From Escherichia coli (GTDB taxonomy: Bacteria > Pseudomonadota > Gammaproteobacteria > Enterobacterales > Enterobacteriaceae), in assembly GCF_003790525.1 (NCBI RefSeq), contig NZ_CP033635.1: 64,000 nt of DNA. One strand, written 5' to 3'. Positions 26,059 through 50,667 of the stretch are shown here, piece by piece. The notes below the pieces were generated by a model. The model saw only the letters and a program-made list of their open reading frames with translations. It searched no databases and was not told the DNA's origin. The position numbers were made by a program, and so were the translations under genes. Each line of letters begins with the position of its first letter. The stretch's first letter is position 1.

Positions 26059-26204
26059 ACGTATTCGCTCAGGCAGGGGGCGCTGGTTGGGAACTCAACG
26101 TTGGCATGGTTTCGCTGCTCTTGTGTAGATGTGTTGCAGTTATTTGCGACATTCCGCCGGAGTAGCGGAACTATGGAAAACGGCAATTGGCGCTCTTATC
26201 CCTT

Positions 26205-26236
26205 AGCTTTGTAAGGCTTAATTTTGGTAGAATGGG
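26205..26236 (+). promoter_or_regulatory. Candidate sigma70 promoter with extended -10 (TGgTAGAAT) for the AT-rich two-gene module
   Basis: TGGTAGAAT at 26225-26233 seen directly; the -35 is weak (TTGTAA or TTAGCT with non-ideal spacing). Confidence 0.35.
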
Positions 26237-26264
26237 GAATCGTTTAACGGAAAAAAACAATCAG

Positions 26265-26759
26265 ATGATTTCTTTTCTATCCGATGAATTTGAGGAATTT
26301 CCGCAGGGAGATTTTTTAAATCATCTCTATAGGTTTTCGGTAGACCATCATCATTTTATCGTGATATTTAGCCCTATTGATATTAGCGATGCGGAGTACC
26401 ATCAATACCGTAGCGAGGAAGTTGGATTTGAAATCCCAACTAATTGTTTTGATGTGAAATTTGATAGGCAAGAAAACTTTGATAGTGGTAACTTTTACAT
26501 GCCCCCCGCCGCAACTGAATGCTCGAGGCGCAGACGCTTTACTGATGAACTCGCAGAGGCGCTAGCAACGATTATTGAAAAGCATTACATCATTTATCAT
26601 GCCAGGGCTTATCTTGCCATCGCAGAGAATGACAAGTTGAAACGTTACTATGACCGGATTTTACACAATGCCCCGGCTAATGTAGCATATAGAGTAATCA
26701 AAGATGTTGGAGAGGAGGAACGAGGTTATGCCATACAAACCGAATGTTTCCGAACTTAA
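26265..26759 (+). CDS. Hypothetical acidic protein (~164 aa from ATG 26265; alternative starts 26232 or 26187), no recognised domain
   Basis: Single long ORF in an AT-rich (~40% GC by eye) segment; MISFLSDEFEEFPQGDFLNHLYRF...; no motif I recognise; start ambiguous, weak RBS. Confidence 0.6.
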   Translation: MISFLSDEFEEFPQGDFLNHLYRFSVDHHHFIVIFSPIDISDAEYHQYRSEEVGFEIPTNCFDVKFDRQENFDSGNFYMPPAATECSRRRRFTDELAEALATIIEKHYIIYHARAYLAIAENDKLKRYYDRILHNAPANVAYRVIKDVGEEERGYAIQTECFRT

Positions 26760-26874
26760 GAAAATGACTGTTGCAGAGCGCAAGAAAGAAGCCATGCGCC
26801 AGCTTAAAGCATCCTTTGAGCGCGCCAGCATTGAAGGGACTTTGCATAAACGCTCTGCAAAGTCTGTTGCGTAA
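26728..26874 (+). CDS. Hypothetical small basic protein (48 aa), overlaps the 3' end of the preceding ORF by 32 nt in another frame
   Basis: Strong RBS GAGGAGG 7-13 nt upstream of ATG 26728; MPYKPNVSELKKMTVAERKKEAMRQLKASFERASIEGTLHKRSAKSVA; below the ORF-track length cutoff, found by reading. Confidence 0.5.
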   Translation: MPYKPNVSELKKMTVAERKKEAMRQLKASFERASIEGTLHKRSAKSVA

Positions 26875-26888
26875 TGAAAGATTTCAAT

Positions 26889-26914
26889 AACCCGCTGCGG
26901 CGGGCCTTTTTTTG
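26889..26914. terminator. Rho-independent terminator 15 nt after the small ORF (possibly bidirectional, facing the convergent VWA gene)
   Basis: cccgctgcggcgggcctttttttg: GC stem plus T7 run. Confidence 0.75.
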
Positions 26915-27095
26915 CCCTCAGAAAATCCCCTCTGACCTGCCTCAGGGATTATATACAACCTTCAGTTAATTAGCTGCGCACCATACGCGGCCCGAGCCTT
27001 ATCGCCTTGTTCAAATTCGACAATTCGTCGGCCAATTTCCCCGAACGTCGCGGTGCTAAGTACCGTATCCGTCCGGGCGTATCCGGCCAGAATTT

Positions 27096-28265
27096 TCAGG
27101 CGGTTTCTCTTGCTGTCACTACGCCATTTTGCGCAGCCCACAGATTCACATCTTCCTTACGAATGGCGGCGGCCATCATGCCGGGGAATAAATCTGGGGT
27201 ACAGGCAAAGGAGGGAATACCCATGGCGGCGAGTTTTCCTGCCAGTGACCGGTCGTAAAACGGCGCACCTTCATCGCTTAAGGCCAGCAGGGTAACCACC
27301 TGTACGCCGGACTGAATCAACTCACTGGCGCGTTGCAACAGATTGCGTTCCACCCCGCCTTCGTAGAGGTCGGAAATCAGCACCAGAATGGTATTGCGCG
27401 GATCGCGAATCAAAGACTGGCAGTAGCCCACCGCGCGGTTGATGTCGGTGCCGCCACCCAGCTGTACGCCAAACAGCAGCTCTACCGGATCGTCGAGCTT
27501 CTCTGTCATATCAACGACTGCGGTGTCGAAAACCACCAGATGCGTTTTTACCGCCGGGAGCGATGCCATTACTGCGCCAAAAATACTGGAATAGACCACC
27601 GAGGAGGCCATCGACCCACTCTGGTCGATACATAAAATGATCTCCTTTTGCGTGCGTTGAGACTTGCGCCCGTAGCCGATCAGCGTTTCAGGAACAATAC
27701 TTTTATACTCTTCCTGCCAGTGGCGCAGGTTGGCGCGAATGGTGCGCTGCCAGTCAATTTCCGCGTGGCGCGGGCGACGATTACGTACCGCACGATTAAG
27801 AGCGCCGCTTACCGCGCTACGCATTGGCTCTTCAAGCTGTTTCATCAATTGCTCGACAACTTTACGCACCACAAGCCTGGCGGTTTCTTTGGTTTTGGCC
27901 GGAATTACGCCATTCAGCGACATCAGCGTGGAGACCAGATGAACATCAGGCTGGACGTTTGCCAGCATCTCCGGCTCCAGCAACATACTGTGCAAATTAA
28001 GACGTTCAAAGGCGTCTTTTTGCATCACCTGAACCACAGAAGAAGGGAAATACTGGCGAATATCACCCAGCCAGCGAGCGACTTTGGGTGACGATCCACC
28101 CGTGCCGCCGCGTAATCCATGTTTACCCTCTGGCTGATACAGCGCCGCCAGCGCGGCATCAATCGCGGACTCTCTGGCATCCAGCGCCACGTTACAGGCA
28201 TTGTCGGCATCTTCTCCAAGGATCAGACGCCAGCGGCGCAGCCGTTCCATTTCGTTACTCGACAT
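27096..28265 (-). CDS. von Willebrand factor A (VWA) domain protein with complete MIDAS motif (389 aa); fifth gene of novel operon
   Basis: DQSGSM (DxSxS), GGGTD and LISDLYEGG motifs seen in the translation; start overlaps the upstream gene's stop by 11 nt. Confidence 0.85.
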   Translation of the reverse strand: MSSNEMERLRRWRLILGEDADNACNVALDARESAIDAALAALYQPEGKHGLRGGTGGSSPKVARWLGDIRQYFPSSVVQVMQKDAFERLNLHSMLLEPEMLANVQPDVHLVSTLMSLNGVIPAKTKETARLVVRKVVEQLMKQLEEPMRSAVSGALNRAVRNRRPRHAEIDWQRTIRANLRHWQEEYKSIVPETLIGYGRKSQRTQKEIILCIDQSGSMASSVVYSSIFGAVMASLPAVKTHLVVFDTAVVDMTEKLDDPVELLFGVQLGGGTDINRAVGYCQSLIRDPRNTILVLISDLYEGGVERNLLQRASELIQSGVQVVTLLALSDEGAPFYDRSLAGKLAAMGIPSFACTPDLFPGMMAAAIRKEDVNLWAAQNGVVTARETA

Positions 28266-30504
28266 GATTTTCCCTTTCGTGTGGTGGCAAAGCCAGAATG
28301 CGGCGCAGTAGCGGCAGCATTAACGCGGCACGCTGTTCATCCCATATACCGCTGGTCTCTTCTTGCTGCGCGACACGCTCGCCCTGCGCGGCGCGTTCGC
28401 CTAACTGGCGGCGTTCCGGGCTGGAAAAACGGCCGAATGTCCGCCGCAGCATCGGCAGGATCCGGGTGAAGTGATTGTCGTTCAGGCCGCTTAGCCAGGC
28501 ATCGATCAACTGCCATAATTCGCTATTGTGCAGTAGCACCATCGCGCTGTCGTTGAGGAAACCTTCCGCCCATGCGGCACTTTCCGCCGGGGGATTGGCT
28601 GGCGATAGCGCCAGGTTCATCAGCGTGCTGATCCGTTCTGTCGTTAACGTTTGCAGATCAAACAACAGGCGCGTCGCCGTTCCGCGAAGCAGCGCGTGTG
28701 CGGTACTGCCCTCTGCCAGCACCATCAACGCCTGCAACCAGCCCGCCAATAGATCTTCGTTATCCAGCAACCGCAGCGCGGCGTGGGCGTCGATAACTTT
28801 TTCTCTCATACTGGCGGCGCTGTCGTCGTTGAGCGCCGAACAGGCTCCGGGTAGGGCGATGGCGGCGCGCGGGGCGAGGCTCATCAGTACCTGCATTACC
28901 ATACCAGAGTCGGTCTGGCGCACGTTGCCGTAGCGGACAATCGCCACCAGTGGTGCCAGGGCTTCCAGCAACTGTTCGATATTGCCCTGAGTGGCAGCCA
29001 GTGATTCCAGTGTATTGGCGATGGGGGCAATCGCGGTCTGTAAATCGGCCAGTAGCACCTGTTGGATAAGCTTTGCCAGTTCCGGCAGCGTGCTGGCGTA
29101 TTGCGCCCTCACAATGGCATAGCGGGAGCTGGCCTGCTCAATGCTGTTACCCCAACGGCTGGCGGTAATGATGTTGATTGCCAGTGCCGGTTCCCAGCGC
29201 AGCGACCAGACTTCGTGGAACGTCCCTTTGCTGTTATTTCCTTGTCCAGCCAGACGGCCCCAGGAAATGTCGAGTAAGGTCAGGCGATGCAGTAAATGGC
29301 TACGCGCCAGATCGCCGGGTTTGCGCAGATCAAGATCCAGCACTTTTTCGCTGGCTTCTGCCTTCAGGCGCAGCGTTTTTTGCTGTTGCGTAATGTCGCG
29401 TTGGAGCGGCACGACGGGCGTATCATCCGGTACGCTTCCCAGCGCGTCGCCGACAATTAACTTCTGGCGAATCATCTGCATTGGCGCGCTTTCGCCCATA
29501 CACACTACGGTTTGCAGCGCTTCGCAAAGTTCGTCAAGCCCCGGCTGCGGGTGATGGCGCATAATCGCCAGCGTCTGCGCCAGCCGCGCCGCTTCGATAA
29601 TGTGGGCGCTGGAACAGTCGAGATCGGCTTCGCGAAACAGCCTTGCCGCGCGTGACAGCCAGCCGATATCGCGGTGAGAAGCGCCCTGATAACGCCACAG
29701 ATGATCGTACCATTCCGGTGACACCACCCCTGCGCCATAACCGCTGGCGCGGCTTAACGCCTCGTAGCTCCAGGGCGTCCAGGCTGCCGCGACCTTGCAC
29801 TTCGGCAAATTTTTCAGCAGTTCGTTATCATTCTTTGCGGGCGGCAGGTTTTCCAGCGCCGGAACGTGCCACGCACCGCAGACTACCGCGATGCGCGAGA
29901 AGCCCTCTTTTTTCGCCTGACGTAGCGTCTTGCGCATATACGCTTCACGCAGTTGATCTCTGGCTGAGTTTCGGGCTTCGGGAGTTGCCTGGCGTAGGGC
30001 AATCATCGCCTCGCGAATCGCCTCGAACAGAGACAAATCATCTTCGCGTTCCTCTACTCTGTGGCTCCACCAGCTTTCCCCATCGGTGTAACCGGCGGCG
30101 CGGCCCAGCCAGTCCAGCGGATCGCCGTCGGGACTGGCTTCAACGGCATCATCGTCATCGCTCTCTTTTTCGTCATCAAGCGCGAACTGATGACTGATGG
30201 GCAAGTCCATAAAGCGCACGGCGATATTTTGCTCAAAACCATAGCGCAGCGCCTGCCATTCCGGGGAGAACGCCGCAAAGGGGTAAAACGCGGCGTGATG
30301 TGAGTCGTCCGGGGCATAAATCAGTAGCGCGACCGGCGGTTGCATCTGTTCATGCTGCATAAAAGGCAGGATGGATTCGCCGTCGGGCGGCCCTTCCACC
30401 AGCAGGCAGTCGGGCTGTAGCGTCTCCAGCGCCTTTCGCAGGCTGCGCGCGCAGCCAGGGCCATGGTGACGGATGCCAAACAAATGAACGGTTTGTTCAG
30501 TCAT
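28255..30504 (-). CDS. Large hypothetical protein (749 aa), no motif recognised; fourth gene of novel operon
   Basis: Uninterrupted 2.25-kb ORF; AAGG RBS in the 17-nt gap after the AAA+ gene; acidic stretch DDEKESDDDDAVEASPDGD; helical Leu/Ala-rich C-terminal half. Confidence 0.8.
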   Translation of the reverse strand: MTEQTVHLFGIRHHGPGCARSLRKALETLQPDCLLVEGPPDGESILPFMQHEQMQPPVALLIYAPDDSHHAAFYPFAAFSPEWQALRYGFEQNIAVRFMDLPISHQFALDDEKESDDDDAVEASPDGDPLDWLGRAAGYTDGESWWSHRVEEREDDLSLFEAIREAMIALRQATPEARNSARDQLREAYMRKTLRQAKKEGFSRIAVVCGAWHVPALENLPPAKNDNELLKNLPKCKVAAAWTPWSYEALSRASGYGAGVVSPEWYDHLWRYQGASHRDIGWLSRAARLFREADLDCSSAHIIEAARLAQTLAIMRHHPQPGLDELCEALQTVVCMGESAPMQMIRQKLIVGDALGSVPDDTPVVPLQRDITQQQKTLRLKAEASEKVLDLDLRKPGDLARSHLLHRLTLLDISWGRLAGQGNNSKGTFHEVWSLRWEPALAINIITASRWGNSIEQASSRYAIVRAQYASTLPELAKLIQQVLLADLQTAIAPIANTLESLAATQGNIEQLLEALAPLVAIVRYGNVRQTDSGMVMQVLMSLAPRAAIALPGACSALNDDSAASMREKVIDAHAALRLLDNEDLLAGWLQALMVLAEGSTAHALLRGTATRLLFDLQTLTTERISTLMNLALSPANPPAESAAWAEGFLNDSAMVLLHNSELWQLIDAWLSGLNDNHFTRILPMLRRTFGRFSSPERRQLGERAAQGERVAQQEETSGIWDEQRAALMLPLLRRILALPPHERENHVE

Positions 30505-30521
30505 AGTGGTTGCCTTGCTGA

Positions 30522-31616
30522 TTACACAATTTCGCGGCAGGCGCGATAGAGATCGTTCCAGTCGCTGCGCTCTTTGACTATAGTTTCCAGATATTCACGC
30601 CATACCACGTCGTCCTGCACGGGATCTTTTACCACCGCGCCGATAAGGCTTGCGGCGATATCCCGCGGATGTAGCACGCCGTCGCCAAAATGGCCCGCCA
30701 GCGCCATACCGTTGTTGATAACGGAGATCGCCTCCGCGGTGCTGAGAGTACTGGTTGGCGACTTAATTTTCGTTTTGCCGTCAACCGTCAGGCCGTTTCG
30801 CAGTTCGCGGAAGATTTGCACGACTCGCTGGATCTCTTTAAGCGCTGGCGGTTCGGCAGGAAGTGCCAGCGCCTGACCCAGTTCGGCGACGCGGCGAGTG
30901 ACAATGTTAATCTCTTCTTCTTCGCTGGCGGGTACGGGCAAAATGACCGTGTTGAAACGACGTTTAAGTGCGGAAGAAAGCTCGTTAACGCCTTTATCCC
31001 GGTTGTTGGCGGTGGCGATAACGTTAAAGCCGCGCGTCGCCTGGACCTCTTCATTCAGTTCGGGGATAGGCAGCGTTTTTTCCGACAGGATCGTGATCAG
31101 CGTGTCCTGAACATCGGCAGGAATACGCGTCAGCTCTTCTACGCGGGCAATCTGCCCGCGTGCCATCGCCCGCATCAATGGGCTTTCTACCAGCGCCGAA
31201 CGTGACGGACCTTTAGAGAGCAACTCCGCGTAGTTCCAGCCATAACGCATTTGTTCTTCACCGGTGCCTGCGGTGCCCTGAATAATTAACGTTGAGTCGC
31301 CGCTGATGGCAGCCGCCAGATGTTCAGAGACCCAGGATTTCGCAGTGCCGGGTACGCCATACAACAGCAGTGCGCGATCGGTTGCCAGCGTGGCAACGGC
31401 GGTTTCGATAATCCGCCTGTTGCCGATATATTTCGGCGTGACCTCAAAACCATTTTCCAGTTGCCCGCCTAACAGATAAGTAGCAACGGACCACGGAGAA
31501 ATAGCCCAGTTTTCCGGGCGCGGATGAGTATCGTTTTTTTGCAGCTCATCCAGTTCTTCTGCAAATTGTTGTTCGGCATGTCGGCGTAAAACGGCGGCAG
31601 TAGCGGTGGAAGTCAT
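30522..31616 (-). CDS. MoxR-like AAA+ ATPase (364 aa from ATG 31616); third gene of novel operon
   Basis: Walker A LLLYGVPGTAKS (GxPGxAKS, MoxR-type), Walker B-like IARVEELTRIPADVQ, sensor-1 NVIATANN, Arg finger LKRRF; ATG overlaps the upstream stop as ATGA. Confidence 0.85.
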   Translation of the reverse strand: MTSTATAAVLRRHAEQQFAEELDELQKNDTHPRPENWAISPWSVATYLLGGQLENGFEVTPKYIGNRRIIETAVATLATDRALLLYGVPGTAKSWVSEHLAAAISGDSTLIIQGTAGTGEEQMRYGWNYAELLSKGPSRSALVESPLMRAMARGQIARVEELTRIPADVQDTLITILSEKTLPIPELNEEVQATRGFNVIATANNRDKGVNELSSALKRRFNTVILPVPASEEEEINIVTRRVAELGQALALPAEPPALKEIQRVVQIFRELRNGLTVDGKTKIKSPTSTLSTAEAISVINNGMALAGHFGDGVLHPRDIAASLIGAVVKDPVQDDVVWREYLETIVKERSDWNDLYRACREIV

Positions 31617-33217
31617 AAAGTAGTTTCTCCGACAAAAAACGAATGAAGTTGAATTCGGTGCGCCAGCGTGGCGCTCAGGGCAGTAAAGGCTGCCTCGCAA
31701 TAAGGCGTTTGTTGTGCGTCATGCGGCCACTTGTCAATGACATCATTGAGGACTTCGGGGGCCAGCAGGCAGGCGAAATCACTCATCACATGGCGCAGGG
31801 CGTAGTCAAAGCGCGCGGAATCATGTTTCACCCAACGGTGCAGCTCCGTGACCATTTGCTGGCTCAGGCGCAGGCTAAAGAGCGACGCATCCAGCGGTAA
31901 CAGGGCGATGTAGCGTTGTAAATGTTCGCCGCCCATTACCGAGAACAGTAACGTCAACACTGGCTCGTGTTCTTCTACGGGCAGGCATTGCAGAAGCTCA
32001 AAGGCGTTAATCTTCACGCCAGCAGGGGAATGAATGCTTATTCCGACGGGGAGTAGGGCGAGGAATGCCTGCGCCCACTGTGGATTTTTTTCGCGCAGGA
32101 CGGCGTGATACCAGGCGCGCAGTAGCGCCTCCTGCCAGTCGGTTTTCCCGGCCCAGCGCAGCAGTTCAACGGGGGTAGCCTGCAGTTGCGTTTGCCACCA
32201 GTCGAGCGGAACCGCTGCAACTATCTGATACAGCCACCATGCGCGCTGGCCCAACTTTTCGCCTTTGGGCTTAGTTTCTTCCAGCGCATCGGCCTTCCAC
32301 TCTGGTAAGAACGCCTCCGGGGCATCAAGGGCGACGCGCAGCATTTTTTCTTTGCCGGATAAGCCTTTTAGCCTTTCAAGTAAGGTCTCAGGAGCGGGGG
32401 ATGAACTGAGCAACGGCGCTAACCGAGACTTCATGCGCGAGATCCAGGCGCTTTCCGGCAGACAACACAGTAACCGTGCCGCAGTTTGCCGCACCTCTTT
32501 GCTGCGATCGGATAATGTCTGTTCCAGAAAGGCTTCGTCGTGTTGGGAGATCCCCACTTCCAGCACAGCCAGCAGCTGTGCGCGTTCGCGGGCATCCAGC
32601 GAACTCATCTCCTGCGCCAGCCGATCGCGACCCTGTTCCGGGGCGCGAATGCGCATTTGCGTCAGATATTGCAGACGCTGTTCGGACGTGCCGTGCAGCC
32701 ACATTTCTTCATCCAGCGGAGCGTCAGTGGAGGCGAGAACATAGCCCCAATCGGCGTTGATTTGCGCCAGCCAGCACCCGCGAGCGCCCAGAACATTGGA
32801 CAGGATGCCGCGTAGAGATGGCTTTTGCGCTCCATAATTCAGCAATGCTGGTAACAGCAGGGGCGGAGGAAGAAGTTGACGACGGACCAATAGATCAAGC
32901 GCCGACCACAGCAACCGCGGCGGTCCTTCTGACAGCAGCAGATGCAGCAGTCCCGCAAAAGCCGGGTTGTTTATTGGCTCGGCATTTTCTTTATCGATTT
33001 CCGGCAGCGGTGCGGGGTCAATCGCCTGCGGCACCCAGCCAGCCAGATGGCAGAGCGCCAGAACGCCCGCCGAGCGCAGTAGCTGTTGCTCTGCGGATGT
33101 GTTATTCGCCAGTTCAGACAGTAACAGCCCAATCTCACTTTGCGACGCCGACGGTGTAAACGCTTTTTTGTCTGTGCCGAGTAGCGCTGTGCGGGTTAAA
33201 TTTTGCCATTCGTTCAT
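31613..33217 (-). CDS. Hypothetical alpha-helical Leu-rich protein (534 aa from ATG 33217; 541 aa if 33238); second gene of novel operon
   Basis: Long ORF; ATG at 33217 forms an ATGA overlap with the SWIM gene stop; Leu/Ala/Trp-rich repeat-like sequence; no catalytic motif recognised. Confidence 0.8.
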   Translation of the reverse strand: MNEWQNLTRTALLGTDKKAFTPSASQSEIGLLLSELANNTSAEQQLLRSAGVLALCHLAGWVPQAIDPAPLPEIDKENAEPINNPAFAGLLHLLLSEGPPRLLWSALDLLVRRQLLPPPLLLPALLNYGAQKPSLRGILSNVLGARGCWLAQINADWGYVLASTDAPLDEEMWLHGTSEQRLQYLTQMRIRAPEQGRDRLAQEMSSLDARERAQLLAVLEVGISQHDEAFLEQTLSDRSKEVRQTAARLLCCLPESAWISRMKSRLAPLLSSSPAPETLLERLKGLSGKEKMLRVALDAPEAFLPEWKADALEETKPKGEKLGQRAWWLYQIVAAVPLDWWQTQLQATPVELLRWAGKTDWQEALLRAWYHAVLREKNPQWAQAFLALLPVGISIHSPAGVKINAFELLQCLPVEEHEPVLTLLFSVMGGEHLQRYIALLPLDASLFSLRLSQQMVTELHRWVKHDSARFDYALRHVMSDFACLLAPEVLNDVIDKWPHDAQQTPYCEAAFTALSATLAHRIQLHSFFVGETTL

Positions 33218-34536
33218 TGTGCGCCTCCGGTTGCCCAAATGACGCTACCGGCAAGCCAGGCGCTACAGGGCGTCAGCTGCTGACCATCCCATTCCCCCAT
33301 TAGCATAAACGGCGCGCCGCCGCTGGCCGCCAGTAACCGCCAACCCTCGTCCGACGACAGGTGCGTCGGTAAGTGCTGGCCCTGTGTCGAGACGAATCGC
33401 CAGCCGCTCTCGTGCGGGTAAATCAATATTTCGCTTACTCGCAGCGGCAGAGGCCATTGCCAGGGATTCGCGCTAAGCCGCTGCGCCATGTCATGCAGCG
33501 CGTCCGGGAGGGGTAATTCTGCAAGCGGGAATCTTTCACCGCGGGTAAACGGCTCCACAACCCGCGCCCGTAGCGGTGATGCGCCAGGGAAAAAGGCAAG
33601 CGCGCCCTGGCAGACTTGCCCGGTGATAAAGTGCTGGGGAAAGTTTTTACTACCGTGTGAATAGTCCAGCAGTAGCGCGGTGCGGTGGCTCTTTTCTCCG
33701 TACAGCCAGACCCGGCGTCGCCACAGATTATTCCCTTCTTGCGCGCTTTGACCTAAGACCTGCCAGTTATCGAGGCAGGTTAATCCGTCAGTGACGTCGT
33801 GTTTATCCGGGGGTATTCCCAATGCCGCATGGAGATCGCTAAGTTGTGCCGGGGATAACATTTGTTGCTGGCGCCAGGCGTCAATAATCAGCTGTAGCTG
33901 CCCCAGTTCTTTGCACAGGCTCGATGGCCATACCTCGGCGGTAGTAAAATGAGTGGTCAGATTGTTCAGGCGAGCGGCAATTCCCGGTAGTTGGGCGTCG
34001 ACCATGCGGGCGGCGATCCCGGCAAAAGGCAACTGTTGTGCAGAGATCTGCGCCAGACCGTGGCGGATCAGGTCGTGCATCCACTGTTCGAGGAAATCCA
34101 GCCCCGCCGTCATTTTTTGGTTGCGTGCCGCTTCCCGTTTGGCGGCAGCCTGCGGGTCGGCAGCTTTTGCCTCAGCCTGCTCTTTCTTCTCTTCTTTGCG
34201 AACCGCCCGCTGCTGGCGCGAGGTTAGCCACTCGCTTACCCATTCCGGCGGCTCGCCAGCGGTGAAACTTGCGGTGTGTTGCACCTGGAGAAAAAGCAAC
34301 GCAAGGCTATGTTTACAGGGGAATTTACGGCTGGGGCAGGAACATTTACAGGCCAGATCCTGTCTGTCGATTCGTACCTGATAAGGGCGGGAGCCGCTAC
34401 CTTTACACTCTCCCCAGAAGGCAGCCTCGCTATATCCGAGCGTCGGCCATTTTGCGGGAGCAACCAGGCCACGAGCCGCTTTAACCGAGGCGTCATCGGG
34501 CGCCAGGGCTTGCACTGATTCAACGGTCAGTTCCAT
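33214..34536 (-). CDS. SWIM zinc-finger domain protein (440 aa); first gene of novel operon
   Basis: CxCxnCxH signature at residues 63-76 (ACKCSCPSRKFPCKHSLALLF); first ORF downstream of gltD on the same strand. Confidence 0.85.
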   Translation of the reverse strand: MELTVESVQALAPDDASVKAARGLVAPAKWPTLGYSEAAFWGECKGSGSRPYQVRIDRQDLACKCSCPSRKFPCKHSLALLFLQVQHTASFTAGEPPEWVSEWLTSRQQRAVRKEEKKEQAEAKAADPQAAAKREAARNQKMTAGLDFLEQWMHDLIRHGLAQISAQQLPFAGIAARMVDAQLPGIAARLNNLTTHFTTAEVWPSSLCKELGQLQLIIDAWRQQQMLSPAQLSDLHAALGIPPDKHDVTDGLTCLDNWQVLGQSAQEGNNLWRRRVWLYGEKSHRTALLLDYSHGSKNFPQHFITGQVCQGALAFFPGASPLRARVVEPFTRGERFPLAELPLPDALHDMAQRLSANPWQWPLPLRVSEILIYPHESGWRFVSTQGQHLPTHLSSDEGWRLLAASGGAPFMLMGEWDGQQLTPCSAWLAGSVIWATGGAQ

Positions 34537-34649
34537 TACAATTCTCTATTGGCGTGGGGAAATCGATGGGGTCAAGGAGGCGTTAAGCAAAGCAGGAGGA
34601 GACTGTTTTCCGTAACAGCGTATTGCGCGTCCATCGCAAATTTGTAGTG

Positions 34650-34679
34650 AGTATAGCGGGCGGTAAATTCAGGAAACAA
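34650..34679 (-). promoter_or_regulatory. Candidate sigma70 promoter for the five-gene operon (-35 TTGTTT, 18-bp spacer, -10 TATACT on minus strand)
   Basis: Hexamers read on the reverse complement ~115-140 nt upstream of the SWIM start codon; heuristic only. Confidence 0.3.
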
Positions 34680-34721
34680 TGGCGGATAGCGGAAAGTGTA
34701 GTTTTTCGGAAAAAGATAACT

Positions 34722-34760
34722 TTATCCCGTGTAACCCGTTTTAAGCGGGCTACACGGGAG
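34722..34760 (-). terminator. Hairpin downstream of gltD (candidate terminator or attenuator)
   Basis: Inverted repeat cccgtgtaacccg / cgggctacacggg 10-45 nt after the gltD stop; the trailing U-tract on the minus strand is interrupted. Confidence 0.4.
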
Positions 34761-34768
34761 GCTGCAAT

Positions 34769-49233: not shown

Positions 49234-50667
49234 TCAAACGAGCTGTTTACGCTGGTTTGACGGCGGAATGGATAAAGACTCTCGGTACTTCGCAACAGTG
49301 CGGCGTGCCACCATGATACCTTGTTCCGACAGCAAAGAGGTTAACTTGCTGTCGCTCAACGGTTTCGCTGGGTTTTCCGCCGCGATTAATTTCTTCACCA
49401 GCGCACGAATCGCCGTGGAGGAAGCTTCGCCGCCGCCCTCGGTATTGACGTGACTGGAAAAGAAATACTTCAGTTCAAAAATGCCTCGTGGACTATGCAG
49501 GTATTTTTGCGTGGTCACGCGAGATATCGTCGATTCATGCATTTCGACAGCCTGGGCGATATCGGCCAGTACCATCGGTTTCATATATTCTTCACCTTGC
49601 TCAAAGAAGGCCTGCTGCTGTTCAACGATACAGCGACTCACGCGCAGTAGCGTATCGTTACGGCTTTCCAGACTCTTGATCAACCATTTGGCATCCTGCA
49701 GATTGCTGCGGATAAACTGGCTGTCACCATCGTTGCGCGCGTTATTGCACATCGAGGCGTAGTGCTGGTTGATTTGCAGACGCGGAATGCTGTCACTGTT
49801 GAGTTCTACCGTCCAGTGACCGTTATGCTTACGCACCAGCACATCTGGAATGACATACTCAGGTTCGCCAGTCTGGATCGACTGCCCGGGGCGCGGATCG
49901 AGCGACTGGATCAGATTGACGGCTTCTTTCAGCACATCTTCTTTCAGACGCGTGACGCGCATTAAAGTGCGGAAGTCGTGATTGGCTAACAGATCGAGAT
50001 GATCGCTAATAATCAGTCTGGCCTCTTCCAGCCACGGCGTGGTTTTATCGAATTGGGAGAGTTGGATCAGCAGACAGTCACGCAGATCTTTTGCCGCCAC
50101 ACCGACTGGATCAAACCGTTGGATCCGCTTAAGGACGGCTTCAACTTCGTCGATGTCAATCTCTTCATCGCCCATACTTTCGAGAATATCTTCCAGCGGG
50201 ACAGTCAGATAACCGGTGTCATCAACGGCATCGACGATAGAGGTAGCAATAGCGCGGTCAGTGTCGGAAAACGGTGTCAGCTCGACCTGCCACATCAGGT
50301 AATCCTGCAAGGTCTGCGTCGTTTCGCCCTGATAGACCGGCAGCTCGTCGTCAATGTAGTCACCGCTGGTGCCGGATGGTGTACCAGCGGTGTAAATGGT
50401 GTCCCAACTGGCATCGAGCGGCAGCTCTTCCGGCATCTCTTTTTGTTCGAGCGCGTCGGCGGTGTCCAGCGTTTCACTGTCTTGCGTTTCGCGGGTGTCG
50501 ATTTCTTCATGAGTGTCGATTTGCTCAAGCAGCGGATTACTCTCCAGCGCCTGCTGTAGCTCCTGCTGAAGTTCCAGCGTCGACAACTGCAACAGACGAA
50601 TTGCCTGTTGGAGCTGTGGCGTCATCGCCAGTTGTTGGCTAAGCCTGAGTTGCAAACCTTGCTTCAT
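49234..50667 (-). CDS. rpoN: RNA polymerase sigma-54 factor RpoN (477 aa)
   Basis: Full ORF; RpoN box [10 protein letters not shown] near the C-terminus. Confidence 0.97.

Follow-up and report, generated by a model that had tools for sequence, protein, structure and literature searches.

A five-gene MoxR–VWA operon of Escherichia coli, with SWIM, DUF5691 and DUF5682 proteins, related to the yehLMPQ cluster

Several bacterial systems associate an AAA_5/MoxR ATPase with a CoxE-type VWA/MIDAS partner, as in the NorQ/NorD, CbbQ/CbbO and CoxD/CoxE pairs, whose genes adjoin that of a client enzyme. The structures of NorQ/NorD support a mechanism with a finger of the VWA protein in the pore and a twisting motion, which was proposed to hold for AAA+/VWA pairs in general (PMC13036017). 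Among the seven MoxR subfamilies that have been named is YehL, which received its name in 2006 and is uncharacterised (PMC3893208). Here we analysed an operon coding for a SWIM zinc-finger protein, a DUF5691 protein, a MoxR-class ATPase, a DUF5682 protein and a VWA protein, located at positions 27096-34536 of a 64,000-nucleotide stretch of Escherichia coli DNA (contig NZ_CP033635.1, assembly GCF_003790525.1), the whole of which is called the window below. We propose that this operon codes for a self-contained, five-subunit, ATP-driven MoxR–VWA remodelling complex, in which the SWIM and DUF5691 proteins would select a client and the action on it of a TIKI-like hydrolase, or of a metal-binding subunit, would be gated, a reading that in our judgement could equally well prove right or wrong.

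In comparison with the NorQ/NorD-type pairs, the cassette has three further dedicated subunits (DUF5682, SWIM–OB and DUF5691) and lacks a conserved client gene. The vWA-MoxR-VMAP ternary conflict systems likewise combine a MoxR–vWA couple with extra conserved proteins and are mobile and patchily distributed (PMC7159879), but the five proteins of the operon showed none of the VMAP, iSTAND, FtsH, beta-propeller or effector-associated domains in Pfam searches, and the SWIM-DUF5691-AAA-DUF5682-VWA architecture is listed neither in that survey (Kaur, Burroughs et al. 2020, PMC7159879) nor in PADLOC. No CobN/BchH or chelatase family match, as expected of Mg/Co chelatase-type systems, was found by Pfam in any of the five subunits. 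Midasin (Rea1), the best solved match to the ATPase, joins AAA_5 modules with a MIDAS domain docking on the ring; it works, however, on pre-60S ribosomes and as one giant polypeptide, and ZSWIM8, which the SWIM protein resembles, is a cullin-3 substrate receptor, the likeness being one of parts only.

Operon organisation and relation to the yeh cluster

The initial annotation of the window had reported five co-directional open reading frames (ORFs) with tight junctions, and all of them are present at the following coordinates on the minus strand:

33214-34536, minus strand: gene 1, SWIM zinc-finger protein, 440 aa (ORF listing and RefSeq)
31613-33217, minus strand: gene 2, DUF5691 protein, 534 aa (the mechanical ORF extends to 33238)
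30522-31616, minus strand: gene 3, AAA_5 MoxR-class ATPase of the YehL subfamily, 364 aa (the ORF extends to 31700)
28255-30504, minus strand: gene 4, DUF5682 protein, 749 aa
27096-28265, minus strand: gene 5, VWA_CoxE protein, 389 aa

From the SWIM to the VWA gene, the first two junctions are overlaps of 4 nt each, the third is a gap of 17 nt and the last an overlap of 11 nt, which suggests that the five genes are translationally coupled. The window matched the chromosome of E. coli SMS-3-5 at 100%, and RefSeq annotates the same five genes there, under the names SWIM zinc finger family, DUF5691, ATP-binding, DUF5682 and VWA proteins. The five genes are a real and intact operon. The SWIM, MoxR-like AAA+ and VWA motifs first noticed in the sequence were each backed by Pfam profile searches, with matches to SWIM (PF04434, E = 2.4e-6), AAA_5 (E = 1.8e-38) and VWA_CoxE (E = 3.6e-52). 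The two remaining large proteins, first described as without recognisable catalytic motifs, both belong to catalogued Pfam families, DUF5691 (E = 1.3e-122, with a weak HEAT match) and DUF5682 (E = 2e-268), and the DUF5682 protein carries an invariant constellation of His, Glu and Arg residues, described below.

We compared the operon with the yehI-(yehK)-yehLMPQ cluster of E. coli K-12, which shares with it a homologous AAA_5-DUF5682-VWA trio, arranged alike. The identities of the ATPase (over 350 aa), DUF5682 and VWA proteins to YehL, YehM and YehP are 41%, 27% and 38%, respectively, which makes the operon an ancient paralogue of the yeh system. The ATPases of the operon type share at least 68% identity with each other across phyla, compared to 41% with YehL, so that the split between the two types is itself ancient. 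Judged from these identities, the operon represents an accessory paralogue that diverged in ancient times; we call it type A and the core yehI/yehLMPQ system type B. The core was found in 5,209 of 5,426 E. coli genomes (96%) and the type-A operon in 33 of them (0.6%).

Both systems have five components, among which are a SWIM-finger protein and a large helical protein, but these two components differ in position and in sequence. In the yeh cluster the helical gene lies upstream and the SWIM gene, yehQ, downstream of the VWA gene, whereas in type A both are located upstream of the ATPase gene; the initial annotation had rightly remarked that the gene order departs from that of yeh. The helical partner is the DUF4132 protein YehI in the yeh system and a DUF5691 protein in the operon. 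The SWIM protein has 440 aa, compared to 614 aa for YehQ, and does not align with it beyond the finger: BLASTP was not significant and hhalign covered the N-terminal finger region only, with a probability of 3%. DUF5691 likewise gave no significant match to YehI/DUF4132 by BLASTP or hhalign. We therefore rejected, on the same searches, the ideas that DUF5691 is a diverged DUF4132 and that the SWIM protein is a short YehQ. The suggested likeness to yehL, yehM, yehP and yehQ thus holds for the ATPase, DUF5682 and VWA trio, and fails for the helical partner and, beyond the finger, for the SWIM protein and YehQ.

Subunits and the proposed remodelling complex

Conservation was examined in 60 orthologues, unless another sample is given, and the following elements were located on the operon:

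31335-31358, minus strand: Walker A motif of the ATPase, G87-V-P-G-T-A-K93-S94, at least 90% conserved
27612-27626, minus strand: MIDAS motif of the VWA protein, D214-Q-S216-G-S218, completed by T273 and D299, at least 90% conserved
29725-30504, minus strand: TIKI/TraB-like domain of the DUF5682 protein, residues ~1-260, from the fold match of the predicted structure
34309-34344, minus strand: SWIM finger C65-x-C67-x6-C74-x-H76 (CSCPSRKFPCKH), at least 90% conserved and invariant in the 50 orthologues compared for it

In the ATPase, the Walker A core G87xPGTAK93 is accompanied by a Walker-B-like R158xE160E161, a sensor N204 and an Arg pair R219R220, all also at least 90% conserved, and 192 of the 364 positions reach this level. 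The Walker B motif is EE and not DE, as in YehL. Among solved structures, the nearest relatives by sequence are midasin (E = 1e-15) and NorQ (E = 5e-6). Pfam gave in addition a weak bpMoxR match (49 residues, E = 3e-4), NCBIfam only the MadB and GvpN families, both below threshold, and PHROGs a phage 'porphyrin biosynthesis' family. By sequence, the protein is a member of the YehL subfamily of MoxR AAA+ ATPases, and the VWA gene lies in the same operon, two genes downstream. The VWA protein has the complete D214xS216xS218...T273...D299 site preceded by a conserved N-terminal region of 200 aa, with 158 of 389 positions at least 90% conserved.

Structure predictions were made for the DUF5682 and SWIM proteins. 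The N-terminal domain of DUF5682 is predicted to have a parallel beta-sheet core with the TraB/TIKI/HopBA1/ChaN/EreA fold, and the C-terminal part, of ~480 aa, to be a helical-repeat scaffold. Across 47 sequences, YehM and a homologue from Bacillus among them, ten residues do not vary: R12, H13, H14, E37, E82, D100, E151, R186, E187 and H213. The TIKI superfamily signature consists of two His, two Glu and a conserved basic residue (PMC6254334), and H13/H14, E37, E82, R186/E187 and H213 of DUF5682, located at strand ends or in a helix, follow the order of this signature, the comparison being one of order along the chain. The DUF5682 domain differs from the described TIKI/TraB/PrgY/ChaN/EreA members in being fused to the ~480-aa helical scaffold and in lying within a MoxR–VWA operon; a TIKI-type domain tied to a helical scaffold and a MoxR–VWA operon was not found in the literature searched.

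In the predicted SWIM protein, the SWIM domain at the N-terminus is followed by a helical bundle (~98-250) and then by a pair of OB-like beta-barrels (~253-435). The model resembles ZSWIM8, in which the SWIM domain organises a multi-protein assembly (PMC13083262), and its C-terminal barrels look like the OB folds of SSB, RPA, PriB and AIM2-HIN. In a search of AFDB50 with this model, the top 50 matches listed were all orthologues of the SWIM protein; neither YehQ nor an annotated relative was among them. The DUF5691 protein is apparently helical, as judged from its weak HEAT-repeat match, and only 20 of its positions are at least 90% conserved.

From these elements a working sequence of events can be proposed. 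The AAA_5 ATPase would assemble into a hexameric ring, on which the CoxE-type VWA protein would dock with its finger in the pore, by analogy with NorQ/NorD, CbbQ/CbbO and midasin, and the MIDAS metal site would grip an acidic residue of a partner. This partner, most likely DUF5682 or a client bound to DUF5682, would be twisted and stretched by ATP hydrolysis. The TraB/TIKI-like domain may then be a hydrolase, peptidase or esterase, whose activity is gated, or else a metal-binding site, with the C-terminal helical repeats as a scaffold. The SWIM–OB protein and the translationally coupled DUF5691, the two fastest-evolving subunits, would form a recognition or assembly module that selects the client.

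Several points weigh against this remodelling complex. The contacts among the five proteins are ones that we infer, and the link of DUF5682 to TraB/TIKI holds at the level of the predicted fold only: Pfam gave no TraB, Tiki or ChaN profile match in any of the 47 DUF5682 members, and a profile search of DUF5682 against PDB sequences returned no match to any solved structure, so that a sequence-level tie was dropped. MoxR/VWA pairs with known roles mostly perform cofactor insertion or enzyme activation rather than hydrolase gating. ChaN and PMT have the TIKI fold yet no hydrolase role (PMC6254334). The literature search returned no paper naming DUF5682 or DUF5691, and the papers naming yehL, yehM, yehP or yehQ were almost all incidental. 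SWIM and MoxR terms met in a CRISPR clustering paper referred to unrelated associations. The suggestion that the arrangement may be undescribed is borne out insofar as no paper found deals with the two DUF families or with this architecture, and is to be qualified in that both are Pfam families, the genes are annotated in RefSeq and the YehL subfamily was named in 2006.

The barrels of the SWIM protein also bring in a machine for DNA damage or nucleic-acid maintenance, perhaps SOS-controlled, in which the ligand of the SWIM–OB protein would be single-stranded or damaged DNA and the target that the MoxR–VWA couple remodels or displaces would be a protein bound to DNA. Beside the predicted likeness to SSB, RPA, PriB and AIM2-HIN, this is consistent with the reports that E. 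coli molR (WGR and DUF4132) belongs to the LexA regulon and that Deinococcus DUF4132 and WGR proteins are induced by mitomycin C and DNA damage via DdrO/IrrE (PMC8533742). In K-12, the region upstream of yehL contains the WGR gene yehF, the molR/yehH pseudogene and the gene of YehI, a DUF4132 protein of 1,210 aa; together with the induction in Deinococcus, these neighbours suggest a damage link for the yeh-type system. This link concerns however DUF4132 and WGR, which are absent from the operon, and DUF5691 has no detectable homology to DUF4132. We then considered the presumed promoter region of the operon:

34537-34768, minus strand: intergenic region between gltD and the operon, 232 bp, presumed promoter region

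No strong sigma-70 match was found in it on the operon strand. A LexA-core-like palindrome CTGT-N8-ACAG (CTGTTTTCCGTAACAG) is located at 34603-34618, 67 nt upstream of the SWIM start, but its spacer is poor and GC-rich and only 2 of 74 loci, those of the SMS-3-5 window and of one further locus, L045, have such a box ahead of the operon, the box of L045 (CTGTATAAATAAACAG) being a much better one. The window holds two CTGT-N8-ACAG boxes, compared to 0.63 expected, and 16 of 100 shuffled sequences reached two; the second match is at 49618-49633 (CTGTTCAACGATACAG). The box upstream of the operon is probably due to chance, SOS regulation of the operon was rejected for its poor spacer and its conservation in just two loci, and we regard a DNA-damage machine as very unlikely.

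Distribution, genomic site and selection

E. coli genomes with the operon have one copy of it, on the chromosome at the gltD/nanQ site, and the 33 copies among 5,426 complete genomes are 97.3-100% identical. Outside the species the family is large: DUF5682 formed 4,447 clusters at 50% identity in an exhaustive search and gave at least 8,000 matches in a word-indexed search. When one genome per species was scanned, at least 600 candidate stretches were obtained; 585 of 600 encode a relative, and the best 80 loci were analysed. They span Gamma-, Beta- and Deltaproteobacteria, Cyanobacteria, Chloroflexi, Bacteroidota, Verrucomicrobia, Planctomycetes, Armatimonadetes and Deinococcales. The order SWIM-DUF5691-AAA-DUF5682-VWA was exact in 64 of the 80 loci and kept in ~70 when minor variants are allowed, over at least nine phyla, the exceptions being mostly contigs that end within the locus. 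It was seen in Bilophila wadsworthia, a soil metagenome, Klebsiella huaxiensis, Deinococcus and Rhizobium. A second architecture, DUF4132-AAA-DUF5682-VWA-SWIM, occurs on a Bacillus mycoides plasmid and in K-12, and Streptomyces has a further variant of the cassette.

Some loci depart from these arrangements. Three type-A loci of Chitinophaga and Cytophaga (L049, L053 and L072) have an extra DUF4132 gene, YehI-like and of ~900-990 aa, directly after the VWA gene, so that the DUF5691 and DUF4132 partners can coexist at one locus. The DUF5682 gene stands alone in three long loci (L027, from Acaryochloris marina, L059 and L075), with the other four genes not nearby, and the SWIM gene and DUF5691 are set apart by ~5-6 kb of other DNA in two loci (L015 and L035); these five are split or rearranged cassettes. 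Two scaffolds of Desertivirga brevis (L037 and L038) have identical component lengths, from either a true duplication or assembly redundancy.

We also searched for a client or sixth gene linked to the cassette. Clustering of 1,385 flanking ORFs from ~85 loci revealed neither a sixth conserved gene nor a linked client enzyme, and the candidate clusters were rejected because they were generic, of ABC ATPases and histidine kinases, and varied in position. This result bears on a further explanation, that the operon codes for a metal- or cofactor-insertion or enzyme-activation chaperone for an enzyme encoded elsewhere, whose ChaN/TIKI-like domain would hold a metal or a tetrapyrrole. In favour of it are the specific CoxE type of the VWA protein, the matches of the ATPase to NorQ, to GvpN and to the phage 'porphyrin biosynthesis' family, a strongly conserved motor, which fits a housekeeping-like role, and the abundance in DUF5682 of invariant His, Glu and Asp, which would suit metal ligation. 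The characterised MoxR/VWA chaperones adjoin the gene of their client, however, and no client-like gene is conserved at the 80 loci; the CobN, BchH and chelatase families were missing from the Pfam matches of every subunit, SWIM–OB and DUF5691 have no counterpart in the known insertion systems, and a presence in 0.6% of E. coli speaks against the servicing of a core enzyme. We consider a chaperone of this kind unlikely.

The initial annotation had placed the operon in the yhcH-gltD interval, where K-12 has gltF and yhc genes, and the annotated flanks agree with it: gltD lies on one side and nanQ (yhcH) on the other, where K-12 has gltF-yhcADEF. In SMS-3-5, yhcG (DUF1016) is present only as a fragment (~26968-27090), while other lineages have an intact yhcG adjoining the operon. 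Between nanQ and the operon of SMS-3-5 is a low-GC (~44%) insert at 26187-26874 on the plus strand, with two overlapping ORFs of 190 aa and 48 aa, followed by a terminator-like hairpin (26891-26904) and then by the DUF1016 fragment; the other lineages have the intact yhcG, a PDDEXK nuclease, instead of this insert. The 190-aa protein had no match in NCBIfam, PADLOC or PHROGs, and the insert could be a small toxin-antitoxin-like or defence insert. The GC content of the operon itself is 55-60%, compared to ~44% in this adjacent stretch.

In Klebsiella huaxiensis, the operon occupies the same gltD/nanQ site. Its ATPase is ~94% identical to that of E. coli, as is the flanking GltD (94%), and this similar divergence at a shared site is compatible with a long vertical residence followed by loss in most lineages. 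The five genes are intact in the four E. coli lineages compared, with ratios of nonsynonymous to synonymous substitution rates (dN/dS) of 0.06 for the ATPase, 0.08 for the VWA protein, 0.18 for the SWIM protein and 0.31 for both DUF5682 and DUF5691, showing purifying selection on the genes of the cassette. Over longer distances, the median identity to the E. coli protein, at the 27 loci where all five aligned, is 73% for the ATPase, 62% for VWA, 46% for DUF5682, 35% for SWIM and 24% for DUF5691. One strain, EC17CM2 (L095, 4927-5724), has a 297-bp in-frame deletion in the ATPase gene, giving 265 instead of 364 aa, with the other four genes identical to those of SMS-3-5; the deleted gene is likely a loss-of-function allele. 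Strain e1-39 (H79) gave the same two-piece 96% match as EC17CM2.

A patchy distribution within E. coli (33 of 5,426 genomes), combined with a presence in many phyla, is what would be expected of a novel anti-phage or anti-mobile-element conflict system, as had been suggested from the first reading of the sequence. Invading nucleic acid or protein would then be sensed by the SWIM–OB and DUF5691 proteins, with the MoxR–VWA couple as a thresholding switch and DUF5682 as a TIKI-like toxic protease effector. The self-contained cassette travels as one unit among unrelated neighbourhoods, its GC content departs from that of the adjoining stretch, and the sensor-like components, SWIM and DUF5691, diverge fastest. 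The TIKI fold includes the toxins and effectors RRSP and HopBA1, the OB/HIN-like folds predicted for the SWIM protein suggest nucleic-acid sensing, and MoxR–vWA pairs are switches in predicted conflict systems (PMC7159879). On the other side, PADLOC (PADLOC-DB v2) returned no match for four of the proteins and for the ATPase only the IetA P-loop (E ~1e-3, 28-30 residues), and neither VMAP nor any other conflict-system family was found by Pfam, except for the weak 49-residue bpMoxR match. PHROGs gave nothing specific either beyond the 'porphyrin biosynthesis' match, and the sub-threshold NCBIfam matches concern the ATPase; a known defence system was therefore rejected.

The genomic context points the same way. 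Recognisable defence genes occurred in none of eight annotated neighbourhoods, where the neighbours were metabolic or signalling genes, a small sample that constitutes weak evidence. The phage collection contained a single record with a DUF5682 homologue, MT835988.1 (10644-12758, 30% identity), a 14-kb contig without annotation that came from a human faecal virome and may be a mis-binned bacterial fragment. The 44 'plasmid' records are mostly megaplasmids, chromids or mislabelled chromosomes, true plasmids being rare, and phages or plasmids were rejected as the usual home of the cassette. Identities of 73% and 62% across phyla and dN/dS ratios of 0.06-0.08 for the ATPase and VWA proteins are unusual for genes in an arms race, the paralogous yeh core is present in 96% of E. 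coli, and the operon of K. huaxiensis keeps the site and, for its ATPase, a GltD-like divergence. The phage-defence suggestion was thus not sustained; a defence role is possible but unsupported, and we judge the anti-invader system described above to be rather unlikely.

The same elements can be assembled into a related proposal, that the cassette is an undescribed and widespread conflict or stress-response system, in which the MoxR–VWA switch would license a TIKI-family protease and the signal would be a client recognised by the ZSWIM8-like SWIM–OB sensor. To this proposal too we give rather low credence.

Meaning for the YehL subfamily

If the licensing of a TIKI-family protease by the MoxR–VWA switch were true, this would be the first TIKI-family enzyme tied to an AAA+ motor, and the YehL subfamily, with E. 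coli yehLMPQ, would gain a function after having been uncharacterised since 2006. E. coli has both versions of the system, yeh in K-12 and type A in SMS-3-5 and 32 other genomes, which offers tractable genetics for an uncharacterised MoxR subfamily. The structural proposals designate specific targets for point mutants, namely the TIKI/TraB-like His/Glu domain, the ZSWIM8-like SWIM module with its OB barrels and the conserved motor. For annotation, the message is that the island is a yehLMPQ paralogue and not a catalogued defence system. The value of the operon lies in testable structural hypotheses for a widespread 'known unknown', rather than in a categorically new system.

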